DNA of 63,852 bases, the filler included, from Welwitschia mirabilis (Eukaryota), in assembly GCA_051453625.1 (NCBI GenBank). It is 8 parts of one record of this genome, joined end to end, with 100 filler letters (N's around TTAATTAATTAA, not from the genome) between each part and the next. Parts side by side here need not be neighbours in the genome. Positions count along the whole stretch, not along the records: positions 1 to 30,516 come from JBOZIK010000001.1; 7 more parts are not named here. One strand, given 5' to 3'. Each line of letters begins with the position of its first letter. The first letter of the stretch is position 1. Positions 1,360 through 40,200 of this stretch are shown here, in pieces. The translations under genes were made by a program, and so were the position numbers. Under the pieces are notes generated by a model. The model searched no databases, had not been told where the DNA came from, and worked only from the letters and a program-made list of their open reading frames with translations.

Positions 1360-1382
1360 TACTATAAGAAATATAGACTATA

Positions 1383-13224: not shown

Positions 13225-13868
13225 GATAGCAAAATCAGACTCTACAGAAATAAAAGTGGAAATTACAAGAAATTGAAAATCTTGCATACCTTCATTTTTT
13301 TACCTATTTCTATTTCAAGATTTATCAAACCTTATCTAATATTTTTAGTAATCAATAGCTGCTCTCTATACTATTTTTCTTTTTTACCAAATTTAATCAG
13401 TCATGCTCGATCTTGGATCTTTGAAAGTATTATTACTATCATTGTCCAGACGATATTTTGAATGACAAAAATACATAAACCCAAGAAAAGAAAAAGTAAA
13501 AAATAGAAATGAAAAACTGACTCTTAATAGGAAAACTTAGAAGATAGACTATCTTTTACCTGAGTCATCTAAACAAATAAGGAAATGATGGAACTAACTT
13601 GAAAAAAATCTAAAACAAAAATGCATAGCATAGAGGCTATCATTGCCACTCATCATTTAGATGATATAGTAGATGATGAACTTTTATTTCAAAATATAAA
13701 AAAGGACTTTGATTTGAAAAATAGAAAACTAACTATACAAAAATAGGAAACTATGCTACTATAGGTATTGTTACACCACTATTGTAGTAAGAATCCAAAC
13801 TAAAACACTTAATAAAGCAATGATAACTCTTGAAATCTAAGAAGCCTTTCCTGGAAATGATACTAAGA

Positions 13869-14955
13869 TGTTACGGTGTGTATTTACATAATTTATTTTT
13901 CCTAAGTAGAATCATATTAATCATAAATAACATGCATAAATACAACACACTAAAATAGATGGGAGTAACCCAAATGTCATAATCCGTCAATAGCCCAAAA
14001 TATGGAAATAAGAGAGTTTCTTTAAAGAGAGAAAAACTATAGCCTAATCTATAAAAATAACTTATAATGCATTAAAATGAAATAAAACATACTTGTGCAA
14101 GGCTAATCTAGGAAAAGAAAATAATAATGCACCTAAACTATTTAAGCACAACCTTGAAAAGGTTGCCCTCATAACCTCTATCACAAAATAAACTGTCATC
14201 GAATCTCAAGCAACATAAGCTTTGAGGGAGAATATCATTCATACATTAAAGCATAAAAATGAATGTTTTATATTAGAAATCATATTACATTTATGTTACA
14301 ATGTAGCCGCACCTCAATGGAGGAAATGCTATCCAACACCAAGGAAACATTTCTCTAAAACTATAGGATGGTTCTCTAGTCCTTCAATCTCTTGTCATAA
14401 GAATATCAGATGCAAACAAAGACAAGGAGGAGTCAAGGAAGATACCTCTATTTATTAACTCAAAACATAAAATGGTACATATAGAAAGATGCAGGTAAAT
14501 TCTAATGGCCGCGTAAAAAGAAAACAGAATACAAGTGGTGAAAGTTAGGTGAACATTTAATGTGGGCATTATAACAGGGTCATTTATATGATCATCTAGC
14601 TAATAAAGGAGATGATGTTACCTCATGATCAAATCTGCATTGGATACTAGTTAGTTCTTAGTTATCATCCAGTTAGCATAGTCATCCATCCTATCATCCA
14701 GACGATGAGGTGGACAATGTCCTTAAATAAATCTTTAATTAGTGTATCAGCCTTATTATTTGTAGGAAGTTATAATTATAAATATAGATTATTCATATTT
14801 TCTTAAAATGCTTGTAATTTATCATGGAAATTGCATATTTTCATCCTTTTTATCCTAGCTCTCCATTATCATGAAAACTAAGCATTTACTTGTCTATTTA
14901 CCTACAAAATAACTCAAAAAAAACTATCAAATATATGTAAGTTGGTAGCACAACA
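13869..14955 (-). repeat. 5' LTR
   Basis: TGTTA...ACAACA, adjacent to the reverse-complement PBS gcctttcctggaaatgatactaaga. Confidence 0.85.
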
Positions 14956-15729
14956 AATAATCATGACACAAGGAAGTACACACTACCATATAACTATAAT
15001 TTGTAGGAATACCAAATTACAGATTAAGTCCACTTAACATTCTTTGAATATGTAGATCAAATAAACCTAGTTCTTATGTATCAAGATGTACACAAGCATG
15101 AATAAGTTCAATATTCTCTTTACATGATAATATTTTAGATGAATTCAAAAAAATAGAAGGGTTATAGTATATTCCATCTTTAAAGGCCCTCGTTACTCTT
15201 AAATCTAGTACCTTTAAAGGCACTAGAGGACAAACTTGATAGCATAATAACTTTATTAACTTTTAAAATATTTTTGAAAAAGAAGGTGTCCATCAATAAG
15301 AGACTCTTTAAGGATTAGCAAGTTGTTTTTATTAATTATTTAGGGCTTCCTTTATCATCTTTCTCTCTTGTAAATATAAGCATTAGAGCCAATGCAAATA
15401 GAAGTAGTGGAGGCTTCCATGGTAAATACCCTTTGGAGGTGAGCATAAAGAAAAAGAATGAAAAAACATATGATGGAACTATTATTGTTGTTACTTATGG
15501 TATTTCTATCTAGATTATTATTTTAAAATTTCTCTACTTTGTTTGACCATGGAGTTAATAAATCATGATAAACAACATTGTTTAAATCTTTACAATGACA
15601 AGAATTAAATAAAATAAATGCAGTTTCCTAAACTTCTCTAGAATAAAATCAAGCAAGAGTAGTTTACTTATTTCTAGAGGACAAATTAGCTAGAAACCCT
15701 ATTTTCCTAGTCATACTTTCACTGCTTAA

Positions 15730-17655
15730 ATGTTTAAGACAATTAAGTCCATTGATGTGTCTTAAAATGATAAAGGATGAGATAACCCTTTTTACAAATA
15801 TAATACATATTAATTATTTGAAAATCATATAAAAACTTATATTAAGAAGATACATATGTATCACCACAAAAAAAGGGAAATGAGATAAAAAAGTAAATTA
15901 CCTATTAAATGAGAGGCACTGCAATAGAAGATGGACTTTTTAGGAAATAAGATTATTGTTAACTTCAAACTAATTTTGTACATTTGTCCATTAGCATCTG
16001 TTGTATTCTTCTTAATATAATAATTTATCAGTATTTAAATGAAAAAGTTTCTAAGACTTTGATTATAAAAAACTACTAAAGAATTGAAATAGGATAAAAC
16101 ATGAAACAAAACTTTGTTTACAAGTTGTTCAAACTATTAAATATTTTCAAAACATGCTTAGTATAATTTTCATTTTAATTGATTCATTTGTTATTAGCTA
16201 TACTATTAATTATATGATTCATTTGCATTCATATCTTAATGTTGGTATTACTCAAGCTTAGAGAAAATGTGCACTTTTTGTAAGATATCACAAAACAAAC
16301 ATACTTATGGGATGCAAAAAATAAAATTATAAATATATCCTTTAAAAGATTGATTTTTATTATATTGAATAGTTCCTAATGCTTAGTGATCAAGTTCAGT
16401 ATTAGAATCCATGATACTCTTGCTCTTGTAAAATTTAGTATCATTTAAAGAAAGAAATATAATGTCAGAGAAATCGTGGTGTAAAAACAACTCTTAAATT
16501 TTCAATTAGACATCCTTGTCATAAATCCAAAACACCCATGTTATAAAACCTTGTAGGATTCTCAACTAATTGGTCAACTCATATGAATGGGTAAAAAGGC
16601 ATTCATGATNNNNNNNNNNNNNNNNNNNNNNNNNNNNNNNNNNNNNNNNNNNNNNNNNNNNNNNNNNNNNNNNNNNNNNNNNNNNNNNNNNNNNNNNNNN
16701 NNNNNNNNNNNNNNNNNNNNNNNNNNNNNNNNNNNNNNNNNNNNNNNNNNNNNNNNNNNNNNNNNNNNNNNNNNNNNNTATATGTTTAAGACAATCAAGT
16801 TCATTAATTAGGCTTGAAATGATAAAGGTTGAGATAACCATTTCTACAAATATAATACAGCTTACTTGTTTGAATATCCTCTAAATAACTTATACTAAGC
16901 AGATATGTATGTTAACCAAAAAAATAGGAAATGAGATGAAAATCAAATTATAAGAGGCACTGTAATAGAAGATGGACTTTCAAGACATAAAATTATTATC
17001 AACTTCAAACAAATTATTTGCATCTATCCATTGGCATATGTTATATGTTGCTCAATATAATAATTTATTAGTATTTAAATGAAAAGTTTTTTAAGACGTT
17101 GGTTGTAATGAACTACTATAGAATAAAAATAGGATAAAACTTCAAAAAAATTATGTTTATAAGCTATTTAAACTATTAAATCTTTTTAAAACATGCTTAG
17201 GATAACTCTCATTTCATTTGATTCATTTGTTATTAGTAGATTACTAATTATATGATTCATATGCATTTGCATTTTGATGTTGGTATTGCTTAAGCTTACA
17301 GAAAATGTGCACTCTTTGCAAGATATCAGAAATAAATATACTTGTGAAATGTAGAAAATAAAATTACAAACATATCCTCCAAAAGCTTAATTTTTATTAT
17401 TTTGAATAGTTTCTAATGCTTGGTGATCAAGTTCAGTATCAAAATATATGGTACTCTTGTTCTTGTAAAATTTAGTAGCCTTTAAAGAAAGAAATATAAT
17501 GTCAGAGNNNNNNNNNNTATGGTGTTAAAATAACTCTTAAATTTTCAATCAAATATCCTTGCCATAAATTCAAAACAACAAAGCTATAAAATTTTGTGGG
17601 ATTCTCTATTGATTGGTCAATCCCATATGGATGGGTAAAAAAGACACTAATGATG
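15730..17655 (+). repeat. Diverged direct duplication of ~0.88 kb (15730-16609 and 16779-17655) inside the CACTA element
   Basis: The two segments align end to end by eye with many transitions. They are separated by an N gap. Confidence 0.85.
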
Positions 17656-19169
17656 ATATATATAATTTGATAATCACATATTTACAAGAGTTGTTTTATA
17701 AGTTCTCTTTGTAGAGTATAATACATCTTAAATGCACATTAAATGCTAAGATTATCCAAGTAATACTCTATATTTTCATGTACACTATTTAGCTATTTAT
17801 GTAATAACCTTATGTATTCTTCATGGTTCTTGAACTCCAAATTTAGACTACAAGTATCATGACTATACCTTTTATGCTGAAAGAATTTCAAGAAATAATA
17901 AGAATTATTTTAGAAAATATTTCAATATATATAAGCAGAAGCATAGAGTAGAAACAATTTTATAAGTAATATCATCCTCAACCTTCTCTGTTAATGAACC
18001 TAATACGTCCTTCAGATTCTTGAAATCAAAGAAATGTCAATCATTATACATAGTGTTTATTTAGAATAAGGTAAGTAAGGTTCTAGATCATGCCTACTGT
18101 TTAACATATTAACTTATTTAGATACATCAAAACACAAAATAAGATAAGGATCACATTCTTATGGGTATGCGTTTAATAAAACACAGAATCAATTAGTTAA
18201 ATAAATTATGCAAGCACCTTTGATTTGAATTTTTAAACACATGTTCAGGTTTTACTATTTGGTCTTCATAACATCTCTTGAAGATGCAATTAGCATAATG
18301 TTTTCATAGATTAAATAAATAATTAAGTCTTACAACTCCTTAGAAAAGTACTTGTAGAGGATGGAAGGTCATGTACTTTTTGAAGCATTAAAAATTAAAC
18401 AATAAAAAACTAAACATTAATTTTGGATAATATGGATAGTGGATTAAATACAGATATTTGAGTAATAGGTAAATAATACAACTTGGATATAGCTATACCC
18501 ATGCTACTATCACAGGTAGTAAATAATTTAAAGGATATAGTTAGAATAATTTATGGATCTGATATGAGAGCAAAATTAAGATTACATAAAAGTAGAGTCC
18601 ATAGATCTTTGAGCCATAGTAGATAACAAACTAAATTATGCTATTAAATGATACTATGGTTCATAACCCCTCTACCATGATAGTGCCTAATAATCAATAT
18701 TATAGCCAGTACATTTAGAAAATGTACTTTAAAAGATCATTTAAAACATCATGTTTTACCATTTCAACCATTTCTTTTGCAAGTTGTATGCCTGCAATTT
18801 TATATCTGCTTGTGTTATACTTCATCTTAATGATAGTATTTTATACCTATATAAGAATAACCATATACAAAATATCTTATGAAAGTCCCATATAGTACAA
18901 ACATTCAAAAGAAATTAAGAACCAAAAGACCAATCTAGATGTACATGAAGGAACTTATGTCTTACCTTCAAGATTGAAGAACTTCACTTTGATAAATTTA
19001 TGAGAAATAGGCTTTGAATAGACTTTAAGCATGTGAGTGATTTTTAAATAATCAATCTATGACTTGAACTCTACATTCTCCATGTCACCGACATATAGAA
19101 ATTATGGAAAAATATTATGTGGGCAATGGAGATATGAGAATGTTAGAATCGAATGATTTCATAAAGATG

Positions 19170-20567
19170 TGTTGCGATGCTAATTTATGGGAATTTAATG
19201 TTGTATTTTGAGTACTTTTGTAGGACATTCATATAAGTTTTGATACAATACTAATGGCTATGAAGATGTGATAGGATGATTAGCGAAACATGTGATATCT
19301 AGCATTTTTGACAATTTCTCAGGCTTAGTCTGATACTGCAGAATTAGAAGAAGGACTGTATGATGCAAAAAATAATTTACCTTGGAGAAAAGAATAAAAA
19401 AAGATTGTCATCCCAACAGTCATCCCCATGACACCTAGGATGACTAGACTTCTAATATGGACAGAAGCGTGCAGTGCTGATAGTGGCACATGATTCACAT
19501 GTTGATAGGGCATTGTCTGCATAGTCATCCAAACAATAAATAGGATGACAGCACTAAGACTATGCACAGGTAATCCATGGGGCTGATGGTAGTACATGGC
19601 ACACTGCCTAAGCTATTAAGGTGGCATCGTCCCCCTTGTCGTGTGGATGACATACTCGACAATAATTATTTTACACTGTAGAAATAAATTCTATTGTAAA
19701 TGGGATCAGATAACCCATGTGGGTCATTAGGGTTTCTGTTTCCTACATTTAGGCTTTTTTTCCAAATCCCTCTTTTGAAAATCTATAAATATTCTTCTCC
19801 TCCTTCATTTCCCTTCCATATTTTGTATCCAATACTTGTGATGGAAGCTTGAAGGGCGAGAGATCCATTCCATGCTGCAATAAAGGAGTCTTCCTGGTGT
19901 CAAGTTGGGTTCCTCTCATTGAGATGCTACTGTTTTGATGTTGTAAGTGGATGTTATTCTGATTTGATTAGATTAATACAATTTCTTCCTTCATCTCATT
20001 ATTGTGCATATTCCTTATGATTTAAGTTGATCTTAGTTAGTGATAAGCTTTGATTTATTTAGATCATAAGGAGAATATTTCTTAAGGTTGACCTTGTTTA
20101 GTAGAATAGATTTGCATTATTTATTTCTTTCTTTTCATACTGCATTTAAAGTCTTACTTTGGTAAATCTCATAGCTTATATTGATTAAGAACTAGTCAAT
20201 ACTCTTCTTCTTTGATATAAGTTATAGAGAAGTAGTCTTTGTGATAGAAAGACTGAGATCTAAGTAGGACCTATTAGATCTCCCATTTCTATCCCATTTC
20301 CATTACATCTGCATTCCATATCCATTCACTTGCATTCCATTTCTATTTAAGCATTGCATTTACTTTAATTATTTCCTTTGAATTTTTGTAAATATAAAAG
20401 AATTAAAATACATTAGCAAAATCAATTCTCTAACTCTAAGCCTAGTGTCTTCATTGGATTATGACATTTGGATGAACTACCATCTATACTAAAGTGTGTT
20501 TTCTACATTCTATATGATCTACAAGTTATCTAAGGGTTTTTAGATTGCATAAATTCACATCACAACA
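19170..20567 (+). mobile_element. Solo LTR (family C)
   Basis: TGTTGCGATG...CACAACA with a perfect AGATG target-site duplication on both sides. No PBS or PPT flanks. Confidence 0.92.
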
Positions 20568-23500
20568 AGATGAATGAATAAATATAGGCTAAAGAAAAAT
20601 TAATAGTAGTATGCTTTAAAATATGAACCACATTTATTCAAAATTATAAAACAAAATCTTTAGGTTGGTTATAGTAGCATATAATATCTAAAATAATGTG
20701 ATAATACAATACTAGTAAAACTTTTTATTCTACTACCTCTGATGGATAAACTAATGCCATTTATTCTTACTTGATGATTAGAAATGAATATTACCTAGAG
20801 AAACTTGAGAATGTAAAAAATTCATCATCATCATCTATAAAAACTGCATGTAAATCATAAAAAATAAGATTTAGAGTTCTTTCAACAAATTAATGGTACT
20901 AGTAGATTCAGCAAAATTCTTACCTTTTTGTTTCTTTAATCACTTCATGTCTTTATGATTAACTTTTGTAGTGTTTCACCAAGAACTTAAAGGTTGTAAA
21001 TCCTTTATACTAGATTACAGTAAAACACTACATGAATCAAATGAGATTAAGGGTAGGAAAAGATCTAATAAGGAATAGGTAAAATCTAGATCATCATAAG
21101 ATAAGCCTATTGTAAGTAGGTAATAGGCAAGCAATTATAGATACTTGTCACATGAAATTACAGATAAGGAATGTGTGTAGATAGAATAAAATCCTCCTTA
21201 TTAAATTCACATCAAAACCTTGGCTTCATAAACATTGATTCTCATAAATAAAAATGCAATGTGGAAAACTACTCTAGTTCATATTTCTATTACATAATAA
21301 AGGACTCAATGTTGTTGTCTTAATGTTTAGTTAGAGAAAGCATGTCTAAAATAAGGTTAAGATATTTAGGCATAATGTTGTTAATTCTATATTAAAAGAA
21401 GCCATACTAAAAGGAAGAACATGAAGTCAGTGTTAATTACTCTCGACTAGAAAAAATTCACAAAGGAAATGCAAGGATTTTGAAGTAGTTTACCTCTATT
21501 AAATTCTAATTTATCCAAAGTGAATAAGATACTAAAGAAGTAGGCTAGAAGTAGATATTTCTCTAGTCAATCTTTTTTTAGTTATCCTTCCATTGCTTGT
21601 GTGCTGCCTTCAATTGTTCACTTGTCCTATTTGGCTACCTTCCTGTTTTAACATTGCACTTCCCTTGAATTCTATTCCTACATTTAAGTGTTAGTCTCTC
21701 TTCCTCTCCTAGTCTCAAGTTGATGGTCTTAGTATTTCTATAATTTACTCAGCAATTGTTTAATATATAGTTAGAGAGCCTTCATGTCAAGTTAATAAGT
21801 GAGCATTAAAAGGTAGATTCTTCTCAGCTCTCAAATGGTTGCTAAGAGACATAATAATTCATAAAATTATGCTTCTTATTAAAGACTAGGCTTTTGTCTT
21901 CTAATTTTCTTTAAACAAGACAATAATATACAATTTTAGATTTCCATGGACATGGCCAGACATTGTTATATCTAATCAATAGGGAATAAATAGCCATCCA
22001 AGTTTAACTTTTTGAGGATATCTTCAAATAGAAATTCAATATGTTTTCTCAGAGGGTAGATTTCAATCTTCACTTTTAAAGAGTTTTTTTAATGATAATA
22101 TGCTTGGTTTTCATTTAAGAGGAGATACAAAGGTTTAAAGCTAGATTGCTAAATTCTTCCTATTTTTGTTAGTCCCTCTCAAACTTGTAGATAGATTACA
22201 GTATACATTACGACCCCATGTGAGACAAAATTTATGCTCTACCAAATGTACATGAGATAATACATGAATATTTTTCTAGGAAAACATATAATTTTTATTA
22301 ATGTTTTTTAAATTTACATAAGGAGGGTTGAAAAATAATTGGCTTGTTTAAACAGTAGCACCAAGTTAATATTTGATGTAAAATTTGTCAAATATAGAGA
22401 GGTGCTACAATGGCGAAGGTTGAATAAGTGTTTGTCAGGGAGTGAAGGTAGATATTTATGGAAGTGCTACATTAAGAATTTTGGAGAAAAAAGAACATGC
22501 ATCATTTTATATTATGGATGACTTCAATACCAATATGGTCATTAAAAGTTCTCCTTGTGTATTACCTTCATCCAAATTAACACCCACAATGTAGAGTCAG
22601 TGTTTGCAAAAGATATAAAATTATTAATACTTGTAATATATGCTAAGTTACAGTCTCTTATAATCATAATAGGTATAAAACTATAGATCCTTTGATTTAT
22701 AATTAAAGTTGTAAGCATTACATATATCTTCCTTAATGGTTAATGCCATAAAAGTTGAGAGAGATTATGCTATGATGGTAGCCAAAAGAAATGGAATGTT
22801 AGAATATCCATCGATGGCTAAATGCTCTCACCCTTAAAGCATAAAACATAAAGACTATAGATCTTATTATAATAAGATACAAAGGGTTTATCAAAGTCAT
22901 TAATCTCCCTATTGACTTCATAAAATTAGGTTTTGGATTTCTTTCTTTCCTTTTTTATTTTTGAATTGCCTTCAATCTTCCTGGATTAACATGAGATTGG
23001 CCCTTAGTAAAACCTTAAATTGGCTTATTTGTGTTAAATTTAATATTTGGCACATCAAGAAAAGGGAATTTCACTCACCCTTTACCAACTACATCTAGTT
23101 ATCCATCTTGTTTGAGGTCGAATCTGATCTAGGGCCTCTGAGATCACATAGATGTAGAGCCCTAATAATGCAATCTTTGGATGATAAAGTGAGAGGACTA
23201 TAGTGCAAAAACAAGAGTAGTAAATGGATGGATGTTTATCCACTAAGCAATGCAATTGTGATCAATACTAGAAATTAGTTGAAGGTTATTTCCAATGGCA
23301 AGTACAAAAGTGCATGGTAGAGGATTACTACAATTAAAGATGATAATAGGATGTTTGTCTACTACAATCCATCTTTGGAGACATTGGTATGGCCTATAAG
23401 TGTGCTCCTATAATTCAATTCTGAGATTAATGGTGATGGTGATAGATCTTAAGTTATCTAAACTATTTATTTGGGAAGTACATGAATGTTTATGCCAAAT

Positions 23501-26500
23501 AGAAGTTTCTTGCTAAGGAGCCTTATTTATAAGTAGCTGCCAAAAGCACAGCTTTGTAAAAATAATATTTGCTAGTATTTTTATTATGATAAGGCCTTGA
23601 AAGTCTTGTGAATTGCCTTGCATTAAAATTATAGTTTTATCTAATCTTATATCATATATTTTATTAGAGGTATCAGTATTTTCTAGCTTTAAATAAAAAT
23701 TATTCACAACTAGCTCTATATTAATGTAAGAACCTTATCGTTTTGCTGTTTATGGAGTATCAGAAATGCAATGCCCTTGTTTTTAAACACATTAGTTACA
23801 TAAAAAGGGGGTATTTCCTTGGTGCCATGAAAAACATGGACAAAGTTAAGAGAATTTGAATTACTAAGTGATAATAAAGTAAAACTTGGAAAGAGGTTTT
23901 ATTAACAATTATCAAACATAATTGTTTATTTAATTTTCATGTTAAAATTGAGAGGCCCGCATCAAATACTTTATAGAATTTATGTTTTTAAATAATAGCT
24001 TAGACCTACTAGAAGGAATAAATCTTTAGAGTGTTGAAACCCAAGCATAAGAGACATCCTATCAATCCCAGAAATCATCTTATGATTAAATGTTTCTTGG
24101 CCATACCGGCTCAAGCCATTTAAAGAATTTTGTCAACCATCCTAAGAATTTTATTATTAGAAATGGCATTTTTCTTATTAACATGGTTGACAACATTATA
24201 AAACTACTATGATCAATTATTGTGTATTTCTTTTGACCCCAAATCCATAATATGTGCTAAGATATTAGGTGACATTACAGTGTAGTCAATTAAAGTAATT
24301 ATTTGAATCCTTGAAAGCCTTGGAGGCCTGTGAATTATCTCATTTAAAAATAATAGTTTCTACACACTTTTAATATTATTATATATTTTTCTATAAAGGC
24401 CTAAACCTAAACTAGGTAGTCATATAGAATACTAGGGTAATAGACGAAAAAAGTTTCTTCCTAATATTTTAAGGTCAAGTATTCAAAGATTTCCACTTAT
24501 TTTTAAAAGCATGAAAATCTTTCATATCTACTTCAAATTTGGAATTATAGAAAAACCATAAGAATGGAAGATCTGTATTATGTACTACAATATAATTATA
24601 CCTTTACCAACTACACCTAATGTTTGCACTTTAATTTTGAGTACATTCTTCTTTTTGTTACTTTGCCTTAGCCAAAAGTCCATTTTCATTTTGTTTGTAC
24701 TAGGTAAATTGATTATTTCCTTCTATTATCTACAATATTCACCCTTGATAGTAAAAACACTAGGTGATATCTCACTTATGATTACATTGTTCATAGTAGA
24801 AGGAGCTGCAGATACTAGCAATATGTTTCTTCTTAACAAGGTAGTTCCTTGCTTTTCATTCTTGTTTAAGAATCTAGCATAATGCCAAATAAGATCCAAC
24901 ATCTTCTAAAGATAGAGTATAAGTTCTAGAATTTACTAGGATTTTTATATCCTTCATAGTAATTAAGGAATCTAATATCTCTAATTCACTAAGATTACTG
25001 TCAACATGAAATTAGGTGTACTGTCTAGCACATTCAATGCCTCCATGGTAAGATGTTTAGGGGGATAATATTTTTATCTTCATAATAAAAGGGAATAACA
25101 AGGTAAATGCCTTTACATGGAATGAAAATAACAAAGGATGATTATGAACTTACATAATAAATTTAGCCCAGATATACCCATCTCTATGCTCTAGCATGCT
25201 ACTTAGTATCTTCAAACCCAGACTTATCAGTTTGGTAGATAGATTGAGGTAAGCATCATCCCTTTCATATAATATTTACATTGTATCTATACTGTTAGAT
25301 TAGTTCATGCATTAGAATAAATGAAATGGAATGTCTATGTAAGTTTCTACATATCTTTACGAGCATTTATCCTTATGTATGAAGATCCTAAACAATATCT
25401 AGGAAGGACTTTTCTCCTTTAAGAATCTCTGTCTCCATTAACTAGCTTGTTCCTTGCATCTACTCCTCCTCTAGTAGTTTCTTATAATTGTTATTTGTAA
25501 TCTAAAAAACATCTAGAAGCAAAATTAAGATCTCTTAAATTGAAAAAATGAAAATGTAAATGGATCTGGGGATTGTTGTAAAGTCGTGATAAAATATGAT
25601 AAATTTGATAATTTTAATTTTATTATTTATTGGGTGGGCATTATTCTTATTTTTTCTGCTTCTACTTCTATTATTCAATATTTTTTAGGAGCATCATGTA
25701 TTGTATAGTCTACTTAAGTAAGGTGTATATACTATAATTTGTAAAATAAAATGAATAGAAATCAGATAAGAAATACATCATTGAAGAACAGGACGTACTT
25801 ATTAAGAGTTCTACATGAAACTATGCCACTAATTCATATTTCCATAAGTAAAAAATAATGAAAAGTGAATAATAGAGTTTCAGAATGAAAGATTTCCAGC
25901 ATTGGGTACTATGACCCCTTGTTCCTGAAGGCTTATTTGGATTCATTACAAGTCCTTAGAGGTTGACTTATTTAACCCATTTCTTCTCTTCCTTCTTGCA
26001 GAATATTTCTTCTGGTTTTCTTCCTTTGCATGAATGCCCTTAGATGGATCCTGCCTTTTCCTTTTACATAAAGTAATTATTATGTTAACTAATTCTCTTC
26101 CTCCTCCCTCTTCTAGATTTTGATGATATCCAAGAAAAAATGACTCATGTGTCAAATCTATAATAAGGCATGCATTCTTATTGTAAAAACATATTTCTTT
26201 CTATAAGAGAATCTATGCATTTTTTAAAAAAGAAATGGCTAACTTTTAACTTTCTTAAAAGAGTCATCCTAGAAAGAGATATCCCATATGCTTTAAATTT
26301 TCACTTTATTTTAGAGTTGATGCCACTGAATCAAAAACACATAGCTCTGATGTAAAAGAAAAATGAAAACCCAAAAAAGAATTGTTCTCTTATTTAAAAA
26401 ACAAATCAAGAGATAACTCTTCATCATTTAACTCAGTGATTATTAATGTAAAAATATTAATTTTGTTAGAAGAGTAGTTTGAATCTTGTTGGTTTTCTTT

Positions 26501-27344
26501 CATAGAAGAGAAGAATGTGCTAAAATGTTCCCTCTACACAAGAAATTCATCTACAAAGAGATCTAAATAATTACTTTAAGCTACTTTTAAAAGCTTCTAA
26601 GATGGTTTAACTGCATTAATTAATTCTTGAGTAAAGGATGTGCTTACAGAGATAGATGATGGGTAATGCTAATTTCGTCTTAGGGTTCTTATACATCAGA
26701 GGTAAGTCTTTAGGCTGATTACCATCCTCAATTCCAACCTTCTTTGGATTTAAAGGGGACTATTAACTTGGATGATTGCTGGATTTTTTTAAGTTACAGT
26801 TTCTTCTGGTCTCTAAGTTAAGGTATCATGTTTCACTTCCTATCAATCAGAAGATGAGACTGGAGTACCTTTTTTTTAGAAACCTTTTACTATTGCTCAG
26901 AATTAATGTCTTGTAATATAGGTGTATTTATATCATTTATGGTAACTTTAAGAAGTGATTTATCATTTCAATCCTTAACAACATGTATGACTTTATCCTT
27001 TGGTAGATTATTAGGTTTTAAAATTCTCATCCAAAAGCCACACATTAGTCTTGTTGCATTGGAATCCTTTGCAATTAGGATGGTCAGTGTTTACATTAGG
27101 CCAAAACTAGTTATTACACTTAATGAAGGGTCTTCTAATACTAATATTGTAAATAAGGCCATGAAATGAATTGTTGTGAAACTCCAAAACATGAAAATTA
27201 CATAAGAGCTATTTAATAAAGTTATTTTTATAAGAATTAAATTGGTGAATCTTTATAATTATGAAGAAAGGTAAATCCATGCCATGACAGAGCCACATGA
27301 GAATATGATCTTTTCACCAGCAAGGATTACAATTCTCTCTAATG

Positions 27345-27715
27345 GATAACTGGTCAATGGCATACAAAAATTGGAAACTGCTAATCATGATTTATCTACT
27401 CAATTTCATTTTGCATCAAGAATGCAAATTGTATGGTTAGACATTCATTGATATTAAATCCTTAAGTAACCATTATCTTGAGATCCATAAGAAAAAGTGC
27501 TAATCATGGTTTATCTACTCAATTTCATTTTGTACCAAGAATGCAAGTTGTATTATCAAATATTCACTAATCTTAAATCCTTAAGAAATCATTATCATAA
27601 GGTCCATAGGAAGGAAGTTAAATGGCCTTTCAAAGGATATTCATGTAAACATTACACTAGTTCATTTACTAATAAGAAAGGTATTAAAAGGCAGATATAC
27701 CATTTACTCTTTTTG
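27345..27715 (+). pseudogene. Decayed C2H2 zinc-finger array (three fingers; 119-bp tandem duplication)
   Basis: CKLYG*TFIDIKSLSNHYLEIH, CKLYYQIFTNLKSLRNHYHKVH and CKHYTSSFTNKKGIKRQ fit C-x2-C-x3-F-x5-L-x2-H-x4-H, with the second Cys as Tyr. Repeat units start at 27379 and 27498. Confidence 0.65.
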
Positions 27716-27799
27716 TAATCATCCTTAACTAGTCAAATAAGCCTTTTCACATGCCAAATTTAATAGAAAAATATAGAGTACTTATCATAAATGTCCTTG

Positions 27800-28730
27800 A
27801 TAATAGACTTTCATGCTTCCAATTGCTCCTTTGTCCAAAATCCTAAAGTGGATGGGTACATACAAAATAGATAAGATGTTCTTCTTCAATAAAATGGATA
27901 GAGGAAGAGTATCAAGCCATATTTAGATTTGAGAGAATACTCCTTAGTAATATCAAAGATTCCAATAGCTTTACTAATAAGAAGGTATCCATGATTGGTT
28001 CTCTATAAGTAATACAAGACAACATGAGGTTGTAGAACATTTCCATAAGATCTAATTCTCGTCAATGGCATCAACTCAATTCTATAAAATCATCATTAAT
28101 CTCATTTAGCTTCTATTCTATATATTCTAAAAAATGAATTACTAGAATTCATAAGATATTACTTATGAGAGATTCTAAAGGAGCCCATTTAGTAAGGGTT
28201 GAAGATAGTATTATGGTTATTTTCATCATTCATCTAAATCCACAGATTATAACCCTGATCCTGTTATATTGTGTTATGATGTAAAGACATTTTATAGTTC
28301 TGATCCTATTATGTTTGGCAAATCTGGATGGCACAAAAGAATGAAACCTTTATTTGTAAACTAGATGATGACTCTCTCTTTTATAATAAACATGTAGATT
28401 ATGAAAACATCAAACATTTCAGGAGTAGAATGATTGAGTTTATTTACCTCTACATCTATAGTAATCACAATGAGGATTTAGTGGTTGTAGAATGTTTTCC
28501 TTAATAATGAAGAGGTTAACAATATTTAAAGAATTAATCTAGAGTGTAGATACCAGAAGCACATTCCTTTAATATTGTAATGATCACACTCTTTATAAAC
28601 CTTAAGAAAGTCATGAATATTATCACGAAAGGCTCTGTGATGATTTACAGGGTAGCCATATTCATTGAAGGTGTGGAACTAGAAGGCTGTATCCACTCTT
28701 ATGCGCTTCTTGTAGGCTTCTATAAATACA
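27800..28730 (-). pseudogene. MS1/MMD1-family PHD-finger protein pseudogene (N-terminal part)
   Basis: Minus-strand translation gives FHTFNEYGYPVNHHRAFRDNIHDFL..YNIKGMCFW, LFIIKENILQPLNPHCDYYRCR, a GT..AG intron at ~28447-28378, SHHLVYK*RFHSFVP, and later GIFDITKEY..WLDTLPLSIL. These are colinear with recalled MMD1/MS1 motifs (FG..GFP...GAFRD.IR.FL; IVEE.V.....YCDHCRC.GWS.H.V.KR.YHFIIP; GSFGVT). Confidence 0.75.
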
Positions 28731-29149
28731 ATGATTTGTCTTTATTTGTGCCTAAATATACCTTTCATTAGATCTCTTCCTTACTCATCCATACAAAGGA
28801 AGCATCAAAGGTTAAACATTGATATCCTACATTACTATATTCTCCTAATTTCATTAAATTAAACTAAAACAACATAGTATCAGAGATGGAAGAAAACACT
28901 ATGCTACCTACAAAGATTTTATAACAACATTTTTCAAAAGAAAAAGGCCTAATAAGCTAGACTTCAGTAGGAACCTTAGGCATGCATCCATTGGATCTGC
29001 ACTGATTAACATCATGGACATGTAAAATGATAGCTTTAAAAGCCTCATTTTTCCATTACCTTTTCCCCCAAATGAACTTACAAAAAAACCATGTTATTAT
29101 GCAATTTTGTTTAGTACCTTCATTTAGTTTATTTCTTTAATAAATTTTA

Positions 29150-29390
29150 TATGCTCCTAAAAAGACTAAATCATTTTTTTCCTTAAAAAACTCAAATTAT
29201 TTAAGGTGTTTATTTGAATAAAATCCTTAAAATCTTTATTATAATTTACACCTAATAAGGCGTTCTTTTTATAAACACCTTAACAAAAATTTGAAAAAGG
29301 ACTTTTAAGGCCTTTGTTTAAAAAATGCCTTAAAAACATTTTATTAGATCATTTAAGGCATTTATTTTAATAAACATCTTAAAAGATTAT
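29150..29390. repeat. Right subterminal repeat array of the CACTA element
   Basis: Same aaatgccttaaa / ttaaggcattt / aaacaccttaa motifs as the left end. Confidence 0.75.
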
Positions 29391-29403
29391 ATTTCTAGTA
29401 GTT

Positions 29404-30517
29404 CCAAGGAAGGCTGTAAGGAGCTAGAGGATTTTTACTATCTAGATAAGTACCTCAAATTTTAGTTTAGGTTCTTTATTTGAAATAGTATTATATTTCT
29501 ATTATAGTTTAGTATGTTTATTATGGCAATTTTAATTTCCCATAGTTTAAAAATTCACTATCATCGTTTCTATCATCCCCATGACACTGGAAATGATAGT
29601 CTACATTTTTGAATTTATTTTTCATAAATTTTTATTCTATTAGTAATAGTAATAAAAGTATTGTTGTCTTATTTTTTATTCTCATGACAAGCTGGATAAT
29701 AGTATATTTAATTAGTTATAGTAAGTTTTCTCTAATTTCAGTTTTCTACTATTGTGCTCATCATTCCTCCTATTCTCTTAATGACTAGATGGATGACTAT
29801 TAGTTATTTTTTATTTTTGTTTTTACTTACTATCTAAAGTACATAGAAACATAGTGAATTCTAGTAGAAAGACAAAATATTAGAGGGAGCAAAACTTGAT
29901 TGAAAAATATATAAAAAAGAGATTATTTAACTTTGAATAAAATCCAGGGATGCACATTCCAGGTATGCACATTTCAATAATTGAAGAAGAGGATTTTCTA
30001 ATTTTATTATTTTAGAGTCAAATTTTATAAAAGAAAGTTGTAAAAATAATAGCAGAAATGAAAGTCATGTCATTTTTATTTCTATGTCAAAATCCTTACA
30101 ACAATAAAAATAAGTTGCTTCATCTAATATGCCAATCATGATAGGAGCTTAGAATTAGAATGCAAATGTTACACATAGAGATTTAATTACTAATAGAAAA
30201 GGTAAAATCCAAGATCCTTTCGATTTACCTATTGGTGATGATATAGAATTAAGAAACTTGAGTTCCTATCTAACATTTTTGGGGAAATCTGAGGAAGACC
30301 CTTTCCAACATCTAGTCGACATTAAACAACTTATACTTACCTCAAGAAATGGGAAGAAATGCCTTAGTGGTCATACCTACATAATTATCTTTTTAGTCAC
30401 ACTTAGAGAAAAGGAAAAACTTTAGCTTAAAACCATTCCATACAAGAGTCTTAAATTATAGAGTCAAGTGTAAGAAGTTTTTATTAAAAGATTTCTAAGT
30501 GAAAGTATCATAAGAAN
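29404..30517 (+). mobile_element. Continuation of the host Athila-like element (rest of PBS, 5' leader, gag start at ~30084)
   Basis: Leader similar to 37740 onward. Translation RDLITNRKGKIQDPFDLPIGDDIELRNL..EEDPFQHLVDIKQLILTSRNGKK is homologous to ORF 48830-49117. Confidence 0.85.
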
Positions 30518-30616
30518 NNNNNNNNNNNNNNNNNNNNNNNNNNNNNNNNNNNNNNNNNNNTTAATTAATTAANNNNNNNNNNNNNNNNNNNNNNNNNNNN
30601 NNNNNNNNNNNNNNNN

Positions 30617-33600
30617 TTCCTTTCTTCTCTCTCTTTTTTTTTTTAATAAAATGATAATTCCTATAAGATTACACACTTAAGAAGACTAAAGTAAATAAGT
30701 AAAGTAAAATACAGAAAAGAAAACTCCTTAATATCTTTATATTTAATCACCATTAAAAAAAATAACACAAGAAACAAGGTATCTTTCTGTTAATATAGTC
30801 CATAGGCATGGGAATGTCTCAAGATTGGGTAAATCCAATCTTACCACTTATAAATGCCAAAGTATAAGCTAATCATAATACTTTATAAAGTAATACACAT
30901 GTCAGGTTAAAAGATGATCAAGTAAAGTCATAATGTTTAACTAAGGAAGTAAGCTAAGAAAGAATTTAGGTAGGAAACAAATGCTTCTACTATGTTCACT
31001 GTTGCATCTAAAATTCCTCATGTCATTTCAATATTTTTATATATGTGCATATCATTTTTCATCCATAATATTTATGATTTGTTCTTTTATANNNNNNNNN
31101 NNNNNNNNNNNNNNNNNNNNNNNNNNNNNNNNNNNNNNNNNNNNNNNNNNNNNNNNNNNNNNNNNNNNNNNNNNNNNNNNNNNNNNNNNNNNNNNNNNNN
31201 NNNNNNNNNNNNNNNNNNNNNNNNNNNNNNNNNNNNNNNNNNNAGTGTCTATAATACAATGAGCAGTTGCATAAAAAGCTCTACCTAGAAGAAGGGGATA
31301 TCCATTTTGATGCTCAACTTCTAAAACAACTACATCTATGGGGTAGAAAGCTTCTTCGATCTGAATGATCAAGTTTTTTATCAAACCTAAAGGTTTCTTA
31401 ATAGATAAATCAGCTAACTCTAAGATAATTTCCATAGGTTCTATTCTCTCTTCTAATCCTAAACATTTACAAATGTGTAAGGGTATAATGTTAACACTAG
31501 CTTCTATATCAATCAAGGCTTTCTTAATTTTTCAGTTCCCCTCTAGTATAACACTAACAGTTGTTGCCCCCATATCTTTAAATTTTGGACACTTCTTAGA
31601 AACTAAATTGCTAGTAGATTGGTCTAGGAAGACTCTACTAGGAATAGTTTATTTTTATTTTCTTCTGATTAGGTCTTTCCATATCTTAAAGTATTTAAGG
31701 TTTTCTTGCAAAAGTTTCTAGAAGGGTAAGTTAATGCTTACATTCTACATTAAGGATTTTAAGTGATTGACAAAGACAGGGTTTTTGTTAAGCCTATAAA
31801 GCCATAGGGTTGTAGTTTTCTTTTGTGATAAATTTTTCTTTTTATTACTAAGGGATAAAGGAAAGGAATGGTTTTCTAAGATTTTTATATCTTCTTCTTC
31901 ATCGTTCTTATTATTATGGGATGTTGAAGCCTTATAAGTAGGGGGAGTTATGTCATTTTTAATCCTTGTCACCACCTTATAATCTTTTTGTACTTCATTA
32001 GGGTTTGGTAAAGGTTGAGTGGCAAGGGTCCCTTATGGTCTTTGGTTGGCAAGCATAGTTTGTTATAAGATGTTCACAAGATGTTTGCATTAGTCTTCTC
32101 TTGGATTTTCCTCAACTCCTCAATAGAATTCCTAAGAGGATCACTATAGTTTTGGCAGTTGGAAGGGCTTGCCATATTATTTTGCTAGTTAAATTAAAAG
32201 TTTTAATATTCTAATCTATTTTGGTAAGGTTGGGAGTTAGGGTAATGTGTTTGAAAATTTTTATGTTGTTCATTCATCCTATGTTGAGAATTATGATTGG
32301 GTGCTTATCCTTGATTATAATTTTGAGTGTAGTTAGAGGGTTCTTGATTCAAAGCATAAACTTCTTCATAAATTCTCTCTTTGAATGTACGAAGTAAAGG
32401 ACACTCCTTCGTGATGTGATACCTATTCTTGCATAAATCGCAAGTTGAAATAATGAATTGACTTTTCTCAATTATCAATTTAGCATCAAGGATCATCTGA
32501 GTGTATTTCTCTAAAGTAGATGTGAAATCCTTAATGATGCTGGTTGGTTCATGTTCTATTTTGGTTTCAGTTTTCTCATGTTTGACTTCTTTAAGGTCTT
32601 TGATGATTTAGTCTACTATTCTATTTTCTCTAGATGAGGGTTTTGGTCAAGTTTGACTTACTTCCACTAAGTCTTCTAACATCTTCCATGCATCTTATAA
32701 AGTTTGATTTAAGAAGTTGCTTCCACAAGAGAAATCTACAAGTTACTTAGTATGACTGTTTAACCCACTATAGAAATAGTTTATTAATTTTACCTCAGAA
32801 AAGGTGTCTACTGGGTTTGAGTGTAAAGCTATAAAGAATCTCTCATAAGAAGAAGCATAGTTTTCGTTAGGTAGTTGTTGAAAGTTTGTAACTTCTTTCT
32901 TACATTTCCAGATGATGGTTTCGTTTATAAGTCTTTTGATAAAGGATTTTTGAACTTGACTCCAAGATTTTAGGCTCTTATCTAATATCATTATAAGCTA
33001 AAGTTTAGCCTTATCTCATAATTTCCTAAGAAAAATAACCATATAGGTTCTATCAGTTATGCACTTTTTACCATTTTCAGAAGTAAGAATGAGTTGTTTA
33101 ATTTCAGCAATTTATTGTAAGGGGTCTTCATCAGGGTCTCCCCTAAAGGTAGGATAAGCATTTAAGTTTTTAAGTTCCACATCGTTACCTAGAGGTAAGT
33201 CAAAGGGTTTTGAATTTCAATTCATTTATTCACTATGAGATCTCTCAGAGTTGCACGAGGAGTAGGAGTAATGGTTCCAATGATAAGGGTTGAATTCAGT
33301 GAGATAGATTGTTTTTGGTAAGAGGTCAACATGGTAGTAAATTTTTCAAAGTTAAAATTAGAATCTTTTGTAGAATTAAAATTAGAAATTTTAGGAAATT
33401 CTAAAGTTTACATACCTGTGCTATTTTGATTTTCAAATTCAAAATTTAGCAAACCTTCTCAAATATTTTGTGCAATGAATTACCTCTCTTTCTAGTATTT
33501 TTCACCTTTTCCTATTTTTACCATTCAGTTTTAGTTCTCAGAAGTGGTCGTCCTGTATGTCATCCAAATGATAAGTTAGATGACAGAGACAAAAAACACA

Positions 33601-34927: not shown

Positions 34928-36317
34928 TGTTGCGGTGTGAATTTATGCAATCTTGAAATCCTTAGGTAAAACTGTAAATGATATAACTTGCAAAAAGACA
35001 CACGCTAGTATAGACGGGAGTTCATCCAAATGTCATAATCCCAATGAAGGCACTAGGCTCAAAGTTAGAGAATTGATTTTCAAAGGTAGTTTTTAGTATT
35101 TTATCTTTTACTTAACTGAAAGTAAATAGTAAAGTAAATGAAATGAAAATGAATGAAGATAAAATACAAGTGAATGAAAATGAAAATGAGATTCTACTTT
35201 AATCCTAATCCATTTATCACAAGGACTAGTATCTAGTCTTTCTGTTATAAATACTATCTTTTATATAATTCATATCAATTAAGAAGAGCATTTAACTAGT
35301 TCTTATCTAACATAAACTATAAGATCCACCAAGTAGAATAGAAAATGTAATATAAAAATGGAATGGAAATGCAATGCAAACCTACTACTAACTAAGGTTA
35401 ACCTTAACAAAGATTACCCTCATGATCTAAATAAATCATAGAACTTTCACTTAACTATGATTAACTAAAAGCATAAGGGACATTCACAGGATTGAAATAA
35501 AAGAGTAATTGTATTAATCAAAGAAGCTTTACATCCACTTACAATAGAATAATAGCTCCTCAATGGAAGAGACACAGCCTAACACCAAGTAAACCCCTTT
35601 CTGTAGCTATTGGATGGACCTCCTACCTTCAAGCTTCTGTCACAAGCATATCAAATATAAAAGATCATTTGGAAGTTAAGAAGGAAAGGGTATTTATAGT
35701 TTTACAATGAACCATAACCCTAGACATTCTTTAAGAAAACCCTAGTCACCAACATGACCAATTTGACACTCTTTATAGATATTATCCTGTACGTTGTCCA
35801 AATGATAATGGGGACAATACCGCCTTCTTGCCTTGGGTTGCATGCCCATGTGATACCATTAGCTCCATGGGTTCCCTATGCATGTTACTAAGGTTATCAT
35901 CCTATATGTCGTTCACGTGACATAGGGGACGATGCATTGGATTACATACCCATATGCTACTGTTAGCCCCATGGGTTGTATCCATTGTCTTGAATGTTAT
36001 CTAGACGAACTAGGGGATGATGCCCTATCATCATGTTCTACTGTCCAAGTGTTATCCATGTGTTGTTCCTGTATAACTGCCTTAATGAGTTGTTGCCCCC
36101 TCTATCATGGGGACAACAGTGGGGATGACAGTCTTCCTAGCTCCTCAAGTAGCAAAAATTGGTCTTCTTCACCTTTAGTCCTCCTGTAATATGCTAAGTA
36201 TCATAACATTTCTGGAATGCCTCCAATCATGTCACCAATGACATGTTTTCATGATCATCTTGTCATCTCTCCATAATTAGCAGAATTGCATCTAAACCTG
36301 TATAAATGTCCTGCAAA
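34928..36317 (-). repeat. Family C LTR inserted into the preceding LTR
   Basis: Begins TGTTGCGGTGTGAATTTATGCAATC, the reverse complement of the family C 3' end. Runs into a gap. Confidence 0.85.
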
Positions 36318-36417
36318 NNNNNNNNNNNNNNNNNNNNNNNNNNNNNNNNNNNNNNNNNNNNTTAATTAATTAANNNNNNNNNNNNNNNNNNNNNNNNNNN
36401 NNNNNNNNNNNNNNNNN

Positions 36418-39400
36418 TGATACTTAGCATATTAAAGGAGGATTAAAGATGAAGAAGACTAATTTACACTATTTGAGGAGTTTGAGAAGAGTGTCATCCT
36501 CACTGTTGGCCCCACGATAAAGGGGACAATAGCTCATTAACATAGCTACACAGGAGCAGCACTTTGGCAACACTTGGACAACAGCACATGGTGATGGGGA
36601 ATCGTCCTTTAGGTCATCTGGATGAACGGAAAGATGATAGATGTGAGAACAACCTATGGGGCTGACAATAGTACATGGACATGTAATCCAAGGCATCGTC
36701 TACTCTGTCATGTGGATGACAAACAAGATGATAGCATCGGTAACATGTGTAGGAAATCCACAAGAGCATAGGCATATAACCCAAGCTGTTAAGGTGGCAT
36801 CGTCCCCTATCTCATATGGACGACAGATAGGATGACAACTGTTTTTACACTGCGACAGTAAATTTTATATAAAGAGGGCAAAACGGGCCATGTGGGTGGC
36901 TAGGATTTCCTTAACGAATGTCTAGGGCTATGGTTCATTATAAAACTATAAATACCCATTTCCCCTTTACTTTTAGGACCATCTTTTGTACTTTATATGC
37001 TTGTGATAGAAGCTTGAAGGTAGGAGGTCCATCCAATAACTGTAGAAATGGGTTTCCTTGCTGTTAGGCTATGTCTTTTCCATTGAGGGGCTATTATTCT
37101 ATTGTAAGTGGATGTAAAATGCTTTTAATTAATATAATTACTCTTTTCATTTCAATTATTTGAATGTTCCTTATGGTTTAAGTTGATCTTAGTTAGTGAA
37201 AGACTTGGATTTATTTAGATTTTGAGGGTAACCTTTGTTAAGGTTGACCTTAGTTAGTAGTAAGTCTGCATTACATTTTGATTTCATTTCATATTGCATT
37301 TCATGTTCTACTTGGTAGATCTTATAGTTGATATTAGTTAAGAATTAGTTAAACAATTTTCTTAATTAATATGAATTATAGAGAAAGTAGTCTTTATGAT
37401 AAAAAGGCTAGAAGCTAGTCCTTATGATAGAAGGACTAGGATCTAAGTAGAATCTCATTTCATTTCCACTTCCATGTACTTTCATTTTATCTTTATTAAT
37501 TTTCATTGCATTTACCTTATTATTTACTTTTAGTTAATAAAAGATAAAAGATCAAAACTAACTTTGAAAATCAATTCTCTAACTCTAAGGCTAGTGCCTT
37601 CATTGGGATTACGACATTCAGGTGAACTCTTGTCTATACTAGCATGTGTATTTTTGTAAGTTATATGATTTATAGGTTTATCTAAAGGACTTCAAGATTG
37701 CATAAATTCACACTACAACATTTTAATTCCATTATCGGGGAAGGCTGTAAGGAGCTAAGAGGATTGTCATTAACTAGATAAGTACCTTAAATCTTTTTGT
37801 TCATGTTATTTATTTGAACTAATGACGTATTTTAGTGTATTTTAAGGTAGATTTATTTCTACAAAATTTTGTTTTTTATAAGTTTTAGAGGCTCTATCAT
37901 TCTCTCTGTCATCCAGATGATACAAGGCATGATAATTCTAAAATTTTAAATTTAGTTTCTGTTTTCACAATTTTTCTTCTATTCACAGCTTAGTAAAACT
38001 ATCATCCTATTAGTCATCCACATGATAGTAAGGATAAGAGTCTTAGTTTTAGTAATTTTCTTTTTATAGTTTCTAGAGTTCTATTATTTTTAGAGTTTAG
38101 TTTTTCTATGATTTTCGTCCTACCCGTCGTTCCCATGATAAGGTGGATGACAATCTAGTGTATTTGATTATAGTTTTTATTTACTGTTTGTACATGCAAA
38201 GATACAAAGAATTCTAGTAGAAAGACGAAAAATCAGCTAGTGAAAAACTAGATTAATAGAAATATCATTTGGCTTCAAAATAAAAATTTAGATACACATA
38301 ACATAGGTATGCAAATTCCGAAATCTCTTTTTTCTATTTTCAAATTAGATTTTCTTTATTTCTTTGTAGTTAGTTAGTAATAATAATTTCACATCTTTTG
38401 AGTGTTAAAAAATAGCAAACTTAAATGATAAACTATCTAATAACCTTAATCTTTATTGTGTACCTATCTTCTTTGCCATTCTGAAACTAAACTCTCTACT
38501 TCTATTCTTCTTGCTTATTTCAATGAATCATAATAGAAAAACCATTGTAGAACTTCTTTCTAAAAGGAGAAGAAAGTTGCAAAATGATGAGTACATTGGT
38601 AAGAAAACACTTTGAGAAATCTTTGCCGAAAGAGGGAGATCATCAGAAAACCATGTTGAAAATAGGAATGGGGTCCATTTTTCTTTTTAATCTAATTATT
38701 CTTTTCACTCTTCTTTTCAAACCACACATTAATATAATGACGAAGATTCCCTATATTTTAGGAATTCCACCTCATTTAGACAAACCTCTAGCAATCATTA
38801 TTTTCAATCCCAATAATCTTCCATGCTTTGCTACTAAGAAGAACCATCTTTCATCAACTACCATGAAGAAGAAAAAGATCCATTAGGAGAAATTATTGGT
38901 AAAATAATGAAGAACCAAAAAAACACCAATAAAAACTTAGAAATATTGGTTGAAATCTTGCAACAAAACCTATTATAGATTCAAGGATCTTTCACAATAC
39001 AACATCCTCACAACTATTTCACTCCATCCTACCTTGAGGAAAATAAAGAAAATTAGAAATTACTGATGATAAAGATTCTTGCTTTTAAATTGAATATGGA
39101 TTTGTAAATCAAACTTCAACATTCTACTAATTATGAGATAAGAAAAAGGGAGAAAATAATAATGTAATTCAATATTTCAACAATTGGGGAAAATATTACC
39201 ATTCATTAGATGATGATATTAAGATACTAGATTATATCCCTGCCATTCATTTACTGCTAGACAATCAAGATGAGGAATCCAATCATGGGAAAACTAAAAA
39301 TCCTTTAATCAATGATGAAGATAATGCTTTTATTTCTCTTGATAATCTTTTTGATGAATCTAATCATTTAGAGAATGGAAGCAGTATTTAACAAAAGAAG

Positions 39401-40100: not shown

Positions 40101-40200
40101 NNNNNNNNNNNNNNNNNNNNNNNNNNNNNNNNNNNNNNNNNNNNTTAATTAATTAANNNNNNNNNNNNNNNNNNNNNNNNNNNNNNNNNNNNNNNNNNNN

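Follow-up and report, generated by a model that had tools for sequence, protein, structure and literature searches.

A decayed MALE MEIOCYTE DEATH 1 family exon 1, probably captured by an old non-autonomous CACTA element, in Welwitschia mirabilis

The stretch of DNA analysed here, referred to below as the window, comprises 63,852 nucleotides, filler included, from the Welwitschia mirabilis assembly GCA_051453625.1. It is AT-rich (approximately 22-33% GC per 2 kb), filled with repeats, and broken by 30 runs of N. Similarity to the MS1/MMD1 family of plant proteins is confined within it to a single minus-strand region of about 300 bp, 28741-28446, which corresponds to residues ~1-99 of the family and hence to exon 1. 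This region lies near the right end of a sequence, 1360-29403, that has the architecture of a CACTA transposon. The two proteins that give the family its name, MMD1/DUET and MS1, are PHD-finger proteins of male meiosis and the tapetum. The PHD finger is the defining, chromatin-reading part of the family.

A tblastn search with 81 proteins against the window placed MMD1-type residues 3-62 at 28732(41)-28553 in frame -3, with about 45% identity and about 53-54 bits, and residues 73-99 at 28523-28446 in frame -2. A family hidden Markov model built from 75 full-length MMD1 proteins was then compared with all 4574 stop-to-stop pieces from the six frames of the whole window. Its best match was 28678-28529 (profile positions 21-63, E 6.9e-9) and its second was 28538-28443 (positions 73-99, E 0.0022). 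The piece ranked third, on the other strand and elsewhere in the window, reached an E-value of 4.1, and just two of the 4574 pieces had an E-value below 1. Translation of 28717-28529 on the minus strand gives 63 residues with one TAG; this read-through, with the TAG read as X, served as a phmmer query against 1.84 billion (1.84e9) representative proteins. Three proteins were found at E<=0.001 (4.1e-5 to 2.5e-4), and all three are short, exon-1-only models of an MMD1-type N-terminus. The first 99 residues of one of these models, P0002, recur unchanged in a protein of 701 residues. The 78 longer relatives are 630-830 residues long, many are named PHD finger protein MALE MEIOCYTE DEATH 1, and their precomputed Pfam lists include a C-terminal PHD finger (PF00628 plus other domains).

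On the minus strand, the first part of the exon (residues ~1-63; tblastn, HMM E 6.9e-9, phmmer E 4.1e-5) occupies 28550-28741 and the second (profile positions 73-99; HMM E 0.0022, tblastn), shifted by one frame, occupies 28446-28526. The donor would be a member of the MS1/MMD1 family closest to MALE MEIOCYTE DEATH 1, where the choice of MMD1 over MS1 follows the names of the nearest matches in a protein set that held no MS1. Pfam found no family above its cut-off in six short minus-strand ORFs of 27785-28678, and a RICTOR_V match in those ORFs, which scored 16.3 bits where 27 are required, was treated as chance. A word-indexed homologue search with a 50-residue piece of the fragment returned no candidate. 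A reading made from the sequence alone, before these searches, had described a decayed minus-strand MS1/MMD1-like frame at 27800-28730 and had proposed tblastn against MMD1 proteins as a check. That check gives significant alignments over residues 3-62 and 73-99, and the family HMM and phmmer bear out the identification as well. The extent has to be redrawn: the similarity holds at 28741-28446, whereas tblastn and the HMM detect none in 27800-28440, and the fragment measures about 300 rather than 930 bp.

Comparison of P0002, an exon-1 read-through model, with the full-length protein P0004 helps to define the end of the fragment. The two come from one species and are identical for exactly 99 residues, to ...CDHCRCTG, and then part; P0002 reads into unrelated sequence while P0004 goes on WSNH.... 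The point at which they split marks the exon-1/intron-1 junction. Homology in the window breaks off at that residue too; its last letters are CDYYRCRG, against CDHCRCTG in the family, and GTAAAT follows. The GT, at 28447-28446 on the minus strand, therefore stands at the conserved donor position of intron 1, as located by the P0002/P0004 comparison and the end of homology in the window. Retention of the donor side of intron 1 argues that the capture was from genomic DNA and not from mRNA, and the preserved boundary thus supports the sequence-only reading in its proposal of capture at the DNA level. That reading had relied on a retained GT-AG intron, of which the GT donor stands; neither exon 2 nor an AG acceptor could be placed in the window.

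The remainder of the gene was searched for with the same tools. For profile positions 100-688, which run from the start of exon 2 through the middle domains to the PHD finger, neither tblastn nor the HMM found anything above chance anywhere in the window. Approximately 590 of the ~690 MMD1 residues have no counterpart, and only ~99 codons are present. No piece from 27800-28440 is among the 40 best matches to the family HMM, a list that extends to an E-value of 79. When the tblastn HSPs for query positions >=95 are sorted into 150-bp bins, the best one per bin has at most 27 bits throughout the 25 bins with most hits, and these bins are scattered over both strands. Pfam found no domain, PHD finger included, in 24400-29400. 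Three blocks picked out by eye, a putative exon-2 start at 28349-28230, an HG..H.NGFGHL block at ~28150 and an LMD.WDRLC block at 28061-27912, were supported neither by tblastn nor by the family HMM and were rejected, as were tblastn alignments extended with gaps to residue ~116 (near 28329), which gained no score over the 26-residue core. Since nothing past exon 1 is detectable in this copy, even as decayed similarity, the ancestral cargo was most likely exon 1 only.

What is present of exon 1 is heavily damaged. There is no ATG where the family Met aligns, a TAA lies two codons upstream, and an in-frame TAG occurs at 28681-28679 on the minus strand. Between 28550 and 28526 (minus strand) the frame changes, and in the shifted or repaired frame there is a second TAG at 28541-28539. 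The frameshift maps to a 1-nt deletion at 28544-28545 (minus strand), recognized from contigs of other copies that carry an extra base behind 28544: four contigs of DNA run X1 (depth 17.5 of 36) and three of run X5 (17.7 of 36.8), or about half of the depth. With this base restored, both exon-1 blocks share one frame, and the spacing from the conserved W to IV equals the family's 10 residues. The frameshift is therefore a deletion that arose within the transposon family after capture. In the alignment of 75 proteins, the fragment covers 31 columns that are at least 90% conserved; it keeps 19 and has changed 12, including the start M and two C, and its identity to the column majority is 38/94. 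Conserved Cys and His residues are among the losses. The copy in the window, having no start, a stop, a frameshift and no PHD finger, is a dead pseudogene fragment, non-coding junk.

CACTA (En/Spm) elements are recognized by short terminal inverted repeats (TIRs) that read 5'-CACTA...TAGTG-3', by a 3-bp target-site duplication, and by subterminal repeat arrays; only autonomous members encode transposase. In the window, the left TIR, TACTATAAGAAATATAG..., lies at 1360-1384 on the plus strand and the right TIR, AACTACTAGAAATATAA..., at 29379-29403 on the minus strand. They match at 18 of 25 bases, a score equalled by 13 of 200,000 random 25-mers from the window, one of which is possibly a self-match. 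The first base is mutated at each end, and the termini read TACTA... and ...TAGTT. Inside the left TIR, subterminal repeats at 1385-1760 (plus strand) consist of GCCTTAAA and AAGGC units and of tandem 37-39 bp units, the latter at 1518-1697. Inside the right TIR, a subterminal region of very high copy, as seen from summed contig depth, extends over 29150-29378 (minus strand) and again contains GCCTTAAA units. This motif occurs six times in the window, always at 1386-1440 or 29304-29359 and so within ~100 bp of the ends. A candidate left TIR at 23263 was discarded; it has no subterminal repeats and falls inside a 2OG-oxygenase fragment.

Self-comparison of the window shows what the site looks like when uninterrupted. 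The flanks of the element adjoin each other in paralogous repeat copies, where 589-1355 matches 36935-37733 and 29408-29912 matches 37739-38265. A second empty-site paralogue lies at ~43312, with 29405-29621 matching 43315-43538. Relative to the uninterrupted sites, which have TCA or TCG, the flanks of the element carry exactly three bases more: TTG at 1357-1359 on the left and CCA at 29404-29406 on the right. These two degenerate triplets are identical neither to each other nor to the TCA/TCG of the empty sites; the three-base excess nevertheless has the size of a CACTA target-site duplication, whose copies would since have diverged. Because the duplication copies are mismatched and the terminal bases mutated, the reading as a single insertion rests on the three-base excess and on flanks that are just 66-72% similar to their paralogues. 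Contigs from other copies supply a further view of the right end. In X1 and X5, respectively, 154 and 159 contigs cease to match behind 29402; they next have a G and are mutually unlike beyond it (agreement 0.4). That G at 29403 is a C on the minus strand and completes the CACTA. About 100 further contigs in each run read the host repeat across the site, with a loose end before 29418 and an agreement of 0.71-0.72. We conclude that 1360-29403, whose flanks are contiguous in the paralogous empty sites, is one non-autonomous CACTA insertion of 28,044 bp, nested repeats included.

The insertion site is itself a high-copy repeat, with at least four more copies in the window, at 19472-20569, 34928-38265 and 41496-43538, and to the right of 29448 both DNA runs reach contig depths of thousands to tens of thousands. 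Repeat copies in the window also share paired 44-base N runs set 12 bases apart. Seven such pairs occur, at 30517-30616, 36318-36417, 40101-40200, 43850-43949, 48366-48465, 57274-57373 and 60813-60912; they recur at matching spots and look like a masked recurring motif rather than assembly gaps.

The placement of the fragment inside a CACTA element, claimed from the sequence alone, is upheld by the terminal and subterminal repeats, by the empty-site paralogues, and by other copies that end at 29402/3 with CACTA. So is its position, given as ~0.7 kb inside the right TIR and reading inward: the distance to the terminus at 29379-29403 is ~0.66 kb, and ~400 bp of sequence without an assignment separate the fragment from the right subterminal repeats.

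No transposase family was detected at E<=0.1 in six read-through frames, with stops translated as X, over 24.5 of the 28 kb (1360-11360 and 14900-29400); 11360-14900, which resembles a retroelement, lay outside this Pfam scan. The absence of a detectable transposase indicates that the element is non-autonomous or fully decayed. Pfam did recognize two pieces of host genes, both on the plus strand. A decayed 2OG-Fe(II) oxygenase domain fragment lies at 23138-23356 (PF03171, E 6.5e-8, 33.3 bits, positions 22-94 of 101), and the receptor-like kinase ALE2 is represented at 15193-15351 by a piece of its N-terminal domain, ALE2_N (PF23180, E 2.2e-6, 28.2 bits where the cut-off is 27). Such a juxtaposition of unrelated 2OG-oxygenase and ALE2_N fragments with the MMD1 piece is the pattern that passive Pack-type capture would be expected to leave.

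Self-comparison further shows nested repeats in the element at 2764-6962, 9363-14955, 15727-17654 and 19172-20569. A tandem duplication of 0.88 kb, 15727-16609 and 16779-17654, has 81% identity and surrounds a 169-base N run. Some ~0.8 kb downstream of the MMD1 fragment, at 27375-27612, a 119-bp unit is tandemly duplicated with 84% identity, and 27371-27693 partially matches RNA reads from other loci at less than 95% likeness. No Rfam family was found in 20000-30500. Retrotransposon-like ORFs, with 73-81% DNA similarity, occur on the minus strand at 10314-13195, 31052-31531 and 47699-48082. They look like aspartic protease, the start of a reverse transcriptase, and gag, and Pfam did not recognize the copy at 10314-11360.

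The stretch is present in public DNA runs of two organism labels, at 0.85 and 0.68 of sampled words, and no RNA run is listed among the public runs that contain it. Contigs of DNA runs X1 and X5, which are at most 660 nt long over the fragment region, were aligned to the window at >=80% likeness. Over 26500-29179 there are several diverged contigs, 3-18 per listed variable site in the two runs. Among the pieces listed over 28145-28882, identity to the window is 83-86%, a difference of ~14-17%. Several copies of the fragment-bearing region, 80-90% alike, therefore exist under the two organism labels. A single copy was named in the sequence-only reading as a finding that would weaken its case, and the fragment is not single-copy. 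Summed word depth is 23-166 over 26500-29179, at 2-8 per listed contig; because summed depth is not a copy number, we claim no more than that there are several copies, perhaps about ten. In the terminal ~250 bp, summed depth rises to 2,800-24,000, compared with 40-130 further inside, which indicates that the termini are common to a much larger family than is the cargo-bearing interior. Since the base missing here is present in about half of the other copies, some of them may keep an open exon-1 frame.

MMD1-type expression would be limited to meiocytes. In two RNA-seq runs of the same species label, with about one quarter of each read and the tissue not stated, zero reads covered 27974-28777. 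Reads elsewhere were few, less than 95% alike, and mostly ran into unlike sequence. At 27808-27858 and 28804-28886 there are 5-14 reads at 80-95% likeness, with sharp and highly consistent loose ends on both sides, a pattern suggesting that the element's interior has exon-sized stretches in common with genes expressed from other loci.

The explanation we favor, at a probability of roughly 0.8, is that the locus is an old non-autonomous CACTA element, swollen by nested repeats, which passively captured a functionless piece of an MMD1 gene consisting of exon 1 and the start of intron 1. The element would have acquired, as chromosomal DNA, exon 1 together with, at a minimum, the opening bases of the intron, which the preserved boundary indicates. 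By analogy with Pack-CACTA elements (PMC6379663; PMC13317346), the pick-up would have been by transduplication. Amplification, of which the other copies are the product, would have gone by passive copying with transposase supplied in trans. The copy in the window landed in the high-copy repeat and then gathered the point mutations, the 1-nt deletion and the nested insertions seen in it, presumably in a course of neutral decay with no function for host or transposon. Nothing points to a protein function of the fragment.

The MMD1 fragment might instead have travelled apart from the CACTA element, through segmental duplication, on a nested carrier of Helitron or MULE type, or as an old MMD1 paralogue locus. 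Although no contig, at lengths of up to 660 nt, bridges the fragment and the terminus in another copy, and although summed depth between the two dips to 23-41 at 28912-29045, the multi-copy similarity runs unbroken between 26500 and the terminus, and 3-6 contigs still cover 28979-29109. One listed contig loses its match at 28743, immediately upstream of the fragment, and the interior has plainly received insertions (2764-6962, 9363-14955, 19172-20569), but no convincing inverted repeats or transposon ends surround the fragment, and such arms as occur in 22500-30200 are weak (71-87%). Exon 1 by itself is, moreover, a better fit to capture than to the decay of a whole gene. Separate travel is therefore judged unlikely. 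Another reading grants the fragment a role as RNA or as a regulatory module, whether through small or antisense RNA acting on the donor gene, through "camouflage", or as a meiocyte promoter that drives transcription inward. The fragment is indeed the 5' end of a gene, faces inward ~400 bp before the subterminal repeats, and exists in several copies, and effects of siRNA from captured fragments on donor genes are described in a review (PMC13317346). Yet the two RNA-seq runs have no read over 27974-28777, the window has a single MMD1-like piece with no hairpin and no Rfam match, and there is no transposase in the element for a promoter to serve. Protein identity to the family, at ~40-45%, implies a nucleotide identity to the donor that is probably too low for siRNA targeting. 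We regard a role of this kind as very unlikely.

The sequence-only reading went further and presented the locus as a chromatin regulator, a germline-directed effector of the transposon. In its strongest form the family would stably carry a working effector similar to VANC or KAONASHI, intact elsewhere, of which the window holds a dead copy. The fragment is multi-copy under two organism labels, and about half of the other copies do keep the base whose loss shifts the frame here; the peptide they could encode would still be an exon-1 peptide without a PHD finger, as nothing beyond exon 1 is found in the window copy, even as decayed similarity. With 12 of 31 conserved residues lost, stop and frameshift lesions in place, no RNA reads, and scraps of unrelated genes in the same element, the claim of an effector is not sustained for this copy, and a working form elsewhere in the family is extremely improbable. 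Passive capture and decay of MMD1 exon 1 by the CACTA element remains the reading we prefer.

The packFinder procedure discards singletons, and a Pack-TYPE family consists of copies that share both termini and cargo. Of the Welwitschia element, several diverged copies of 26500-29179 are seen and the terminus recurs in the thousands, with no contig that joins the two in another copy. In Gisby & Catoni 2022 (PMC8903248), Pack-TYPE elements are non-autonomous class II elements with captured fragments of coding genes between their TIRs. By that definition the Welwitschia element would class as Pack-TYPE, and as Pack-CACTA-like: it is bounded by TIRs, transposase was not found in it, and it holds MMD1, 2OG-FeII_Oxy and ALE2_N pieces. 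Pack-CACTA elements, according to Catoni et al. 2019 (PMC6379663), have a 3-bp target-site duplication and exon-sized captured stretches of ~73% identity, and captured fragments are characterized in a review as "usually non-functional pseudogenes" (PMC13317346). The Welwitschia element resembles Pack-CACTA1/2 of Arabidopsis (PMC6379663; PMC8903248) in its CACTA-type termini, non-autonomy, putative target duplication of 3-bp size, multiple copies, and exon-sized, diverged fragments of unlinked genes between the TIRs. It differs from them in being much larger (28 kb), because of its nested repeats, in the degeneracy of its termini and target-site duplication, and in being known so far from sequence, with cargo and terminus seen together in this copy.

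Gene fragments in a soybean element are, going by the title of a report, said to be spliced into novel transcripts; for the Welwitschia fragment, in contrast, no transcript was seen in two RNA-seq runs. That Tgm-Express1-type element (Zabala & Vodkin 2007, as cited in PMC13317346) is alike in CACTA type, subterminal repeats, and several host fragments that include introns. With the MMD1/DUET and MS1 proteins themselves, the fragment shares homology over the N-terminal ~99 residues and the same exon-1 donor position; it lacks ~590 residues, has stops and a frameshift, and is a fragment pseudogene rather than a member gene. VANC of VANDAL elements and KAONASHI of KI-MULEs likewise represent host-derived sequence inside a DNA transposon. 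They are genes that are intact and expressed and for which anti-silencing activity has been demonstrated or proposed (PMC13317346), whereas the Welwitschia cargo is a broken single exon with no RNA reads in either of two runs.

Gene-fragment capture by CACTA elements is already well described, and MMD1 exon 1 is a further instance. Across titles and the opening parts of abstracts, a view that leaves supplementary lists of captured genes outside, we found no report of an MMD1 or MS1 fragment as transposon cargo. One conjecture would give the locus wider reach, although we consider it very improbable: a CACTA subfamily may have spread the promoter-proximal region and exon 1 of MMD1, with open frames or small or antisense RNA in some copies that lead to modulation of host MMD1 or to transcription timed to meiocytes. 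If true, this would be a regulatory hijack aimed at the germline and not junk. The finding would become more significant only if expression or conservation in male meiocytes were established for other copies of the family. As it stands, the locus adds one more case of exon capture at the DNA level by a CACTA element, with scraps of three unrelated genes in a single element, and a match to MMD1/MS1 at this position should be masked as an exon-1 pseudogene borne by a transposon, to be annotated neither as a PHD-finger gene nor as a candidate locus for fertility or meiosis.
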